Shown in pieces: positions 53,421-54,158 of a stretch of DNA of 55,737 nt. Source of the DNA: an uncultured Muribaculaceae bacterium. Its GTDB lineage: Bacteria; Bacillota_I; Bacilli_A; RF39; UBA660. Within the stretch, counting starts at the first letter, position 1. Every line of letters begins with the position of its first letter. The stretch is taken from positions 1-55,737 of the forward strand of contig CAYWFZ010000005.1 of the NCBI GenBank assembly GCA_964458035.1, in the 5' to 3' direction. The translations under genes were made by a program, and so were the position numbers. Below the pieces are notes generated by a model. It was not told the DNA's origin. It did no database searches and saw nothing but the letters and a program-made list of their open reading frames with translations.

Positions 53421-54158
53421 TTATGCATATTTTGCATTTAATTTTAATCTATCTGCTAAAGTAACAATAAATTCTGAATTAGTTGGTTTACTACGATCAA
53501 AATCAATAGAGTTTCCAAATATCTCTTCCATAAGATTGTAGTCACCTCTAACCCATGAAACTTCAATCGCATGTCTTATTGCTCTTTCTACTCTTGATGA
53601 TGTTGTGTCATAAGTTGATGCAATACTTGGATACAATTCCTTAGTAATTGAACCAACTAATGATGAATCACGATAAAGCATCTCTACACCATCACGAATA
53701 TAAGAATAACCTTTTATATGAGATGGTATACCTAAACTATGTAAAAGATTAGTTATTTCAATCTTTATGTCTAAATTTTCTTCTGTCTTTATATTAGTAC
53801 GTCTTTTATAAAGCGCTACTATAATGTCTTCAAGTGTACTAACATCAAATGGTTTTTTAATAAAATAATTGATAGAATATTTACTTATGCTATCCATCAT
53901 ATCTGCTGATATGAACTCGCTTGTCGCGATAATTATTTTATCCTCATATTCACTTCTTATCTTTTTAAGAAGTGAGTAAGAATCCATTCCATTAAGTAAC
54001 ATATTTATAATTATACAATCCGATTCTTTTATAAAGTGCTCTGCCTCTTCTTTTGAGCTTGCACATCTTACTTCAATACTACTAGAACTTCCAGAATACT
54101 TCGCAACTTCTTTTGTGTGATTAGAATCTCCATCTATCACTAATGTTTTTATTGCCAT
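53421..54158 (-). CDS. spo0A: Sporulation master regulator Spo0A (atypical receiver domain)
   Basis: LGIPSHIKGY.Y.R, ITKELYPSIA, TTSSRVERAIRHAIEV.W.RG, KPTNSEFI. Confidence 0.95.
   Translation of the reverse strand: MAIKTLVIDGDSNHTKEVAKYSGSSSSIEVRCASSKEEAEHFIKESDCIIINMLLNGMDSYSLLKKIRSEYEDKIIIATSEFISADMMDSISKYSINYFIKKPFDVSTLEDIIVALYKRRTNIKTEENLDIKIEITNLLHSLGIPSHIKGYSYIRDGVEMLYRDSSLVGSITKELYPSIASTYDTTSSRVERAIRHAIEVSWVRGDYNLMEEIFGNSIDFDRSKPTNSEFIVTLADRLKLNAKYA

Follow-up and report, generated by a model that had tools for sequence, protein, structure and literature searches.

Can an endospore-forming lineage enter sporulation through a Spo0A that lacks the aspartate on which its activation normally depends? 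In a review, sporulation of every endospore former is described as starting through a Spo0A that phosphorylation of a conserved aspartate activates (PMC11210211). The question is raised by a spo0A orthologue near the end of a 55,737-nucleotide stretch of DNA (hereafter the window; contig CAYWFZ010000005.1, positions 1 to 55,737 of the forward strand, GenBank assembly GCA_964458035.1) from an uncultured bacterium labelled Muribaculaceae and placed by GTDB in the RF39 lineage, UBA660. An earlier annotation made from the letters of this DNA (the sequence-only reading) had proposed that the gene encodes a phosphorylation-independent Spo0A. The analysis reported here supports this proposal as far as sequences reach, through Asn across the clade, purifying selection and searches that found no second spo0A, while the controls suggested along with it fare unevenly. 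The gene is likely the organism's single functional spo0A, with a receiver domain turned into an aspartate-less pseudo-receiver, and we infer that its product would not be activatable through Asp56-type phosphorylation, i.e., through His-to-Asp phosphotransfer. Because the aspartate is replaced in most of the genus, sporulation would have to be switched on there in some other way.

A conserved DNA-binding domain joined to a receiver without the acceptor aspartate

The gene and the parts of it on which the argument depends are as follows.

53421..54158 (-): spo0A orthologue, 245 amino acids (aa), the sole Spo0A_C gene found in the assembly
53445..53756 (-): Spo0A_C DNA-binding and transcription-activation domain, intact (PF08769, PDB alignment, Foldseek)
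53799..54152 (-): aspartate-less pseudo-receiver, residues 3-120, (beta-alpha)5 fold (AlphaFold2, Foldseek)
54003..54005 (-): codon 52, AAT = Asn, the phospho-acceptor position at the end of strand beta3 (direct reading, 1dz3 alignment)
54126..54134 (-): codons 9-11, D-G-D, replacing the metal-binding acidic pair D-D(-N) (1dz3 alignment)
54078..54089 (-): Ser24-Ser27 tract in the alpha1-beta2 loop, genus-specific and conserved (residue counts in the nearest clusters)

Pfam assigns residues 135-238 of the product to Spo0A_C (E 1.2e-39) and residues 6-113 to Response_reg (E 3.4e-10), the PF08769 model being covered end to end in this genome, G000 (positions 1-104 of 104, 136.5 bits). When searched against the PDB with phmmer, the Spo0A_C half aligns nearly letter for letter with 1fc3/1lq1 (E about 1e-38), including the recognition helix and the C-terminal 'KPTNSEFI' (query 'TTSSRVERAIRHAIEVSW' against 'TTASRVERAIRHAIEVAW'), and the N-terminal half aligns with 1dz3, the Spo0A receiver of Geobacillus stearothermophilus (Spo0A-N). 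The protein combines a Spo0A_C domain with a (beta-alpha)5 receiver and is the product of the one Spo0A_C gene found in a 71%-complete genome that also carries sporulation genes, as expected of Spo0A; it lacks the phosphorylatable Asp (Asp56 of Bacillus subtilis) and scores below the cut-off of the NCBIfam equivalog model TIGR02875. The conserved recognition helix and an upstream 0A box point indirectly to a predicted role in 0A-box binding and control of entry into sporulation.

In the alignment with 1dz3, the query segment 'dciiinmllngmds' lies opposite 'DILLLDIIMPHLDG', N52 falling on the acceptor Asp, and 'vidgdsn' lies opposite 'IADDNRE', the D-D pair of the pocket becoming D9-G10 with D11 one place further on; the A-D-D-N of canonical Spo0A is I-D-G-D here. 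Thr79 ('ATSEF') and Lys102 ('KKPFD') are retained, and the canonical set of five active-site residues (DD, D, T/S, K) is incomplete, with D9, T79 and K102 present and G10 and N52 substituted. The 'MP' that follows the acceptor is also lost, and the beta3-alpha3 loop is changed. The domain is therefore an aspartate-less receiver (ALR), being recognised as a receiver by its profile and having no phospho-acceptor Asp. The observations from which the sequence-only reading started are all borne out: Asn52 (AAT) at the Asp56-equivalent position and the change from ADDN to IDGD by the codon and this alignment, and the intact KPFD, DNA-binding domain and two perfect 0A boxes by the PDB alignment, Pfam and a box scan.

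Modelled with AlphaFold2 from 59 sequences of the clade (mean predicted local distance difference test score, pLDDT, 86.7), the protein has a regular (beta-alpha)5 receiver with strands at residues 3-8, 28-33, 48-52, 75-80 and 98-101, the third of which ends in Asn52; helix 5 is long and extends into the linker, and the C-terminal domain is helical. Foldseek matches the C-terminal domain to 1fc3/1lq1 (Spo0A-C) with template modelling scores of 0.85-0.92 and the N-terminal domain to receiver domains, including those of Spo0A-N (5wq0 and 1qmp), at 19-23% identity. The Ser24-27 tract is placed by the model on the face opposite the active site.

Asparagine prevails across the genus

The genus of this genome (g1) is represented in the collection by 21 other species, 20 of them with an orthologue. 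Including the window protein, the acceptor position is Asn in 18 and Asp in 3 of the 21 sequences, encoded by AAT (16), AAC (2) and GAT (3). A wider sample of the clade, taken as the best 120 matches (90%-identity clusters, 53-99% identical) in a database of 5.8 billion proteins, has Asn at this position in 93 clusters, Asp in 26 and Ser in 1. Position 9 is Asp in all 120. At position 10, 43 clusters have an acidic residue (Glu in 41, Asp in 2) and 77 a non-acidic one, and at least 117 retain Thr79 and Lys102. Ser is found at S25, S26 and S27 in 116, 110 and 112 of the 120 clusters, and is only the third-, fifth- and fourth-commonest residue at these positions (8, 6 and 9 rows) in canonical family members of at least 235 aa.

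Asn52 is no error, which the sequence-only reading had argued from the second change in the pocket. Its codon is one base away from that of Asp, and GAT misread as AAT, or a rare strain variant, could in principle have produced it. However, contigs of runs X3, X4, X7 and X10, from four studies, span 54003-54005 with no other letter listed; this comparison used assembled contigs rather than raw reads, two of them being identical over 660-730 bases and the other two belonging to diverged strains with 15 and 24 differences elsewhere. Together with the Asn of 17 sister species and 93 of the 120 clusters, and with the pocket and beta3-alpha3 loop changes that accompany it, this refutes a sequencing or assembly error, or a rare strain variant, at codon 52. 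Spontaneous deamidation of Asn52 to Asp was also rated unlikely: Met or Leu follows it where the strand ends, and such surroundings do not favour deamidation.

The regulator also appears to be alone. The assembly is a metagenome-assembled genome of 1.72 Mb in 107 contigs, 71% complete, and a profile search of it returned one Spo0A_C match; each of the 20 sister species with a match has one full-length Spo0A_C, further matches covering the receiver only. A second, canonical spo0A, which the sequence-only reading had regarded as evidence against itself, was found by Spo0A_C search neither in this 71%-complete genome nor in the 20 sister genomes.

Sampling of 100 other genera of the family gave Spo0A_C in 93. 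In a contrast set of 93 Spo0A_C loci from 89 genomes of 89 other genera, 79 loci have D-D, D and K, 78 of them full-length canonical, and most of the non-canonical loci are second copies or truncated genes of very small genomes. By this distribution, having no Spo0A other than an aspartate-less one sets the genus apart from the rest of its family. In two sister genera, spo0A-type genes stand in tandem (G022:C31, 5720-6451 and 6605-7345; G073:C32, 7111-7422 and 7975-8286), and truncated or degenerate Spo0A_C genes occur in several very small genomes of the family (e.g., G120, G114, G081, G112 and G091).

An ancient change followed by purifying selection

A maximum-likelihood tree was built with the acceptor column excluded and with two loci of uncertain N-termini (L027 and L028) dropped. 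The stem of the genus measures 1.57 changes per column with 100/100 support, and Asn-bearing clades surround the Asp-bearing sequences (L009, and L012 with L013). The distribution of the acceptor residue requires at least three changes; one loss and two single-base reversions could explain it, as could five losses. The sequence-only reading had counted relatives with Asp as evidence against it; such relatives exist, but they amount to 3 of the 20 sister species, all nested in Asn clades, the other 17 carrying Asn.

Between the genus and canonical family members, identity is 28% in the receiver and 68% in the DNA-binding domain, as against 53% and 82% among canonical members, the burst of divergence being confined to the receiver. 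Within the genus, the receiver is down to 47% identity. Over 14 species pairs the ratio of nonsynonymous to synonymous substitution rates (dN/dS) is 0.04-0.34 for the receiver and 0.007-0.08 for the DNA-binding domain, the receiver having been under purifying selection since the burst. The toggling of the acceptor position between Asn and Asp (once Ser) points to a constraint on shape, that is, to a probable structural rather than catalytic role for an Asp-shaped side chain.

The spo0A locus and its neighbours

Five further features lie around the gene.

54288..54294 (-): perfect 0A box TGTCGAA, 136 nucleotides (nt) upstream of the start codon (box scan)
54239..54245 (+): inverted perfect 0A box (TTCGACA when read along the gene strand), 87 nt upstream, the conserved one of the two (box scan)
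54304..55548 (-): CtpB-like S41 C-terminal processing protease, directly upstream (Peptidase_S41, PDZ and CtpB_N-like domains)
51490..53376 (-): ClpC-like two-ring AAA+ ATPase, 628 aa, directly downstream (Clp_N, AAA, AAA_lid_9 and AAA_2 domains)
53379..53412 (-): hairpin and U-run between spo0A and the Clp gene, the 3' arm carrying the AGGAGG of the Clp gene (RNA folding)

The TTCGACA box is kept at -87 to -116 in 19 of the 21 loci of the genus. TGTCGAA boxes number 10 in the window against 3.17 expected, a count attained in 1 of 100 shuffles. Ahead of spo0A, promoter-like sites are not enriched (9 against 7.7 in shuffles), and none is claimed.

The flanking Clp ATPase gene invoked by the sequence-only reading is real, and its position is fixed within the genus: it is the next gene after spo0A, at a spacing of about 45-80 nt, in all 20 sister-species loci, and the same order is found in 10 of 10 loci of the clade from public genomes. 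A CtpB-like gene precedes spo0A in 18 of the 20 sister-species loci. Neither neighbour occurs at the sister-genus loci examined (L023-L026 and L051). Within the clade, this ATPase comes closest to a 780-aa ClpC-type protein that sister genera encode elsewhere; its orthologues are shorter (580-666 aa), and it scores 391 on the TIGR02639 ClpA model, whose cut-off is 993. In all 11 aligned orthologues the Walker B motif of the second ring lacks D-E ('LLKNIEYA'-type; K-N, D-N or K-G) and an I-G-Y/F loop is conserved; loops of this type dock ClpP. The hairpin between the two genes has a folding energy of -14 kcal/mol (z -2.78) and is visible by folding only, a simple terminator scan making no call there.

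As side observations on these ATPases, the orthologue of G007 contains two in-frame TAA codons, and a second Clp-family ATPase (about 704 aa) has a single in-frame TGA in five species of one sub-clade of the genus (G001:C19, G011:C2, G015:C1, G017:C7 and G019:C7), which could be a shared break, read-through or recoding.

Kinases, phosphotransfer proteins and Ser/Thr signalling

The sequence-only reading had also proposed a search for orphan histidine kinases and for spo0F or spo0B. Two orphan hybrid kinases, an Hpt and a protein with a canonical receiver, which it had not foreseen, were found in the genus, and a lineage devoid of phosphorelay is not the resulting picture; a Spo0B-type domain was not found in this inventory. 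The genome encodes seven histidine kinases, six of which adjoin a response-regulator gene or lie near one, with one gene between. Contig ends truncate the seventh, a hybrid kinase (C104, with a probable continuation on C30); complete hybrid kinases in sister species have the architectures HisKA-HATPase-REC-REC (769 aa) and HisKA-HATPase-REC (615 aa), with no neighbouring regulator gene. This genome encodes a stand-alone Hpt of 118 aa, as do 17 of 18 sister genomes, and Hpt occurs in 34 of 60 other genomes of the family. Its surroundings in this genome, read from gene order, are as follows.

Contig C40, L164:2367-6138: spoIVB-like peptidase, two unknown genes (274 and 230 aa), Hpt (118 aa), X-REC (238 aa)

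X-REC, encoded directly after the Hpt, consists of an unknown N-terminal domain of 110 residues (X) and a canonical receiver (D-D, D, K). The order spoIVB-Hpt-X-REC is common to three sister species, and the X domain is present in 14 of the 21 sister species as against 1 of 100 other family genomes. Its AlphaFold2 model (pLDDT about 90) is alpha/beta, with a helix, three strands, two helices and three strands, for which an Atlas look-up gave weak PAS/GAF-like leads (scores 0.83-0.86, short of the mark of 0.9). Homology links the X-REC receiver to that of an Hpt-REC fusion found in sister genera (hhalign E 7.9e-41). A derivation of X as a degenerate Hpt was rejected, since hhalign aligns the receiver halves only. 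A gene similar in kind to X-REC stands beside Hpt in only one other family genome, G093 (genus g73, C57:10387-10949), where no Spo0A_C match was found at 94% completeness.

The Hpt-REC fusion (265 aa, 3598-4395) lies head to tail between a hybrid kinase (616 aa, 1743-3593) and a canonical spo0A (4519-5310) in locus L165 (G082:C2:2500-9500), which hints that a kinase-Hpt relay of the family, rather than Spo0F/Spo0B, may feed canonical Spo0A. Hpt and spo0A are adjacent in this one sister genus only (G082), and a relocation of spo0A out of an ancestral relay cluster is not claimed. A complex prediction of Spo0A with X-REC scored 0.00 in both runs, which were made without controls, and speaks neither for nor against binding. 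That the relay is kept despite loss of the acceptor argues against the signalling input having simply been lost.

Control by Ser/Thr phosphorylation had been suggested by the sequence-only reading from the presence of PrkC and PrpC in the window. Both genes are there (PrkC-like, 16701-18506; PrpC-like, 18509-19249), but they lie 35 kb from spo0A, with no specific link to it, in the order rlmN-prpC-prkC-rsgA-rpe (15251-20268, (-)). We take this to be the housekeeping operon arrangement of B. subtilis, which explains their presence in the window.

Sporulation genes

SpoIVA passes its cut-off in 17 of 22 genomes, namely this one and those of 16 out of 21 sister species searched; two more have sub-cut-off fragments only. 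SigE-like and SigF/G-like genes are present in this genome, and a SigE/SigK-like sigma gene lies in two halves about 3.9 kb apart on one strand (contig C12, 19794-20099 (-) and 15550-15915 (-), covering model positions 22-121 and 111-232), which resembles a sigK interrupted by a skin-like element. In the window, a germinant-receptor-type operon at 38480-41795 (+) comprises GerXA-like and GerXC-like genes and a third gene of 314 aa with no family match at 1e-10; a gene for a small RstR-like repressor (38228-38455) lies upstream of it. The product on contig C40 with a 'GMSGSPI' motif presumably belongs to the SpoIVB family. In its available text, a survey of related uncultured orders predicts sporulation with an altered or reduced gene set in which spoIIE is often missing, and uses the presence of spo0A as a marker of sporulation ability, the acceptor residue going unmentioned there (PMC10868615).

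How might an aspartate-less Spo0A be governed?

By analogy with other atypical response regulators, this Spo0A would most likely bind 0A boxes and activate sporulation genes unphosphorylated. Its activity would be set by the amount made from a self-regulated promoter, and/or by partners acting on the retained receiver, for which the ClpC-like ATPase and the Hpt and X-REC relay proteins are candidates.

Several observations weigh against a sole, aspartate-independent Spo0A. Asp occupies the acceptor position in 3 of the 20 sister species and 26 of the 120 clusters, and in a few of these members (pocket D-E-D, e.g., L009) the set of five active-site residues is complete, which might make them phosphorylatable. 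The retained hybrid kinases and Hpt could feed into Spo0A in some way, and this species may have a second spo0A, given the 71% completeness of its assembly. The protein scores 192.3 bits on TIGR02875, below the cut-off of 200, a shortfall due to the diverged receiver. The downstream programme is itself unusual, because neither this genome nor any other of the 61 family genomes searched gave a match to SpoIIE (TIGR02865, E <= 1e-10); the gene has either been lost or has diverged past the full-length model, though SpoIVA and Spo0A are widespread in the family. Finally, the organism is uncultured.

Among alternative readings, a rewired entry into sporulation, with Spo0A uncoupled from phosphotransfer, the relay ending on X-REC, and X-REC or the ClpC-like ATPase governing Spo0A by contact, is doubtful as a whole. 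In the version that rests on the relay, signals would pass from the hybrid kinases through Hpt to X-REC, and phosphorylated X-REC or Hpt would bind the pseudo-receiver. In keeping with this are the two orphan hybrid kinases of the genus, with a partial copy here on C104/C30, the Hpt of nearly all sister genomes and its place directly before X-REC here and in three sister species, the distribution of the X domain, and the homology of the X-REC receiver to a fusion flanked in L165 by a hybrid kinase and a canonical spo0A. However, the link is one of co-occurrence only, relay genes adjoin spo0A in 1 of roughly 34 Hpt-bearing genera of the family, the relay may serve other outputs (e.g., a REC-HD protein on contig C23), and G093 has X-REC and Hpt with no Spo0A_C detected; we hold this route to be rather unlikely. 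Control by the ClpC-like ATPase, which would set the level or activity of Spo0A by unfolding, degradation or sequestration, is unlikely. The gene order conserved in every sister-species and public-genome locus and absent at L023-L026 and L051, the 780-aa ClpC-type counterpart in sister genera and the conserved I-G-Y/F loop would fit such control, and MecA together with ClpC restrains Spo0A-dependent transcription in B. subtilis; but neighbouring genes often share regulation only, the hairpin and U-run put co-transcription in doubt, the degenerate Walker B of the second ring may weaken unfoldase activity, and no adaptor was identified.

Spo0A could instead be a repurposed or decaying regulator, an ordinary transcription factor or a gene near loss in a lineage that is giving up sporulation. 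Small genomes (0.9-2.0 Mb), the lack of a SpoIIE match in the 61 family genomes, truncated or degenerate Spo0A-like genes in several tiny genomes of the family (L152-L159) and the altered or reduced sporulation that a survey predicts for related uncultured orders (PMC10868615) are in keeping with this. Against it, 21 species have an unbroken open reading frame whose two domains are both under strong purifying selection, SpoIVA passes its cut-off in 17 of the 22 genomes that represent the genus, genes for sigma factors, GerA-type proteins and SpoIVB occur, and the self-regulatory 0A box is kept, which makes such decay distinctly unlikely. Phosphorylation on Ser or Thr instead of Asp, for instance of the Ser24-27 tract by a PASTA kinase, is highly improbable: the tract is present in 110-116 of the 120 clusters and uncommon in canonical family members, and the genome has genes for both a PASTA kinase and a PP2C phosphatase, but these lie 35 kb away in what we assume to be a housekeeping order with no specific link to spo0A, and the tract faces away from the active site.

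Relation to known regulators and significance

With the canonical Spo0A proteins of B. subtilis, G. stearothermophilus and Clostridioides difficile (1qmp, 1dz3, 1fc3, 1lq1), the window protein shares its two domains, a near-identical recognition helix, the receiver fold with its Thr and Lys, 0A boxes at its own promoter, and its single copy in a genome with sporulation genes. It differs in its acceptor Asn, the Gly in its pocket, the lack of 'MP' and a receiver identity of about 23% to 1qmp, and its gene lies between ctpB-like and clpC-like genes rather than beside spoIVB, which we take to be the neighbour of spo0A in B. subtilis. Laboratory Spo0A carrying D56N is inactive, and sad67 and other suppressors are phosphorylation-independent. 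Such mutants share with the window protein a change of the acceptor residue and indicate that activity without phosphorylation is possible via further receiver changes; they are, however, single engineered changes in a canonical background, whereas the Asn described here is natural, old and accompanied by divergence of the whole receiver (28% identity).

A receiver recognised by its profile, without Asp, with its fold kept and under selection, is also shared with ALR or pseudo-receiver regulators such as ChxR, HP1043/HsrA, GlnR and BldM-WhiI, from which the window protein differs by its Spo0A_C output and by being the only master sporulation regulator of its lineage. ALR regulators are described as acting without phosphorylation, often as constitutive dimers or via partners (PMC4395418; PMC12632262). 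A 2015 survey counts 7 ALRs among 391 Response_reg~Spo0A_C sequences (supplement file 6), mentions Spo0A in its main text for laboratory mutants only, and gives Glu (26%), not Asn, as the commonest ALR substitution (PMC4395418). In the literature covered, which comprised texts outside subscription journals and the supplements of PMC4395418, no account was found of a lineage with an Asp-lacking Spo0A alone, and the count of 7 ALRs is the one trace. Aspartate-less receivers are a known class, of which a genus-wide, sole aspartate-less Spo0A was not found described.

If this reading of the locus is true, a gut genus with sporulation genes would be a natural exception to the rule of Asp-phosphorylated Spo0A, and would offer a natural experiment on the functions of a receiver other than phosphorylation. 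It also counsels caution in inferring regulation from the presence of a gene in uncultured lineages. The retained relay parts, X-REC and the fixed spo0A-clpC pair are concrete candidates for a replacement input, and, should the rewiring prove true, the genus would represent a natural replacement of the end-point of the textbook phosphorelay in an endospore lineage.

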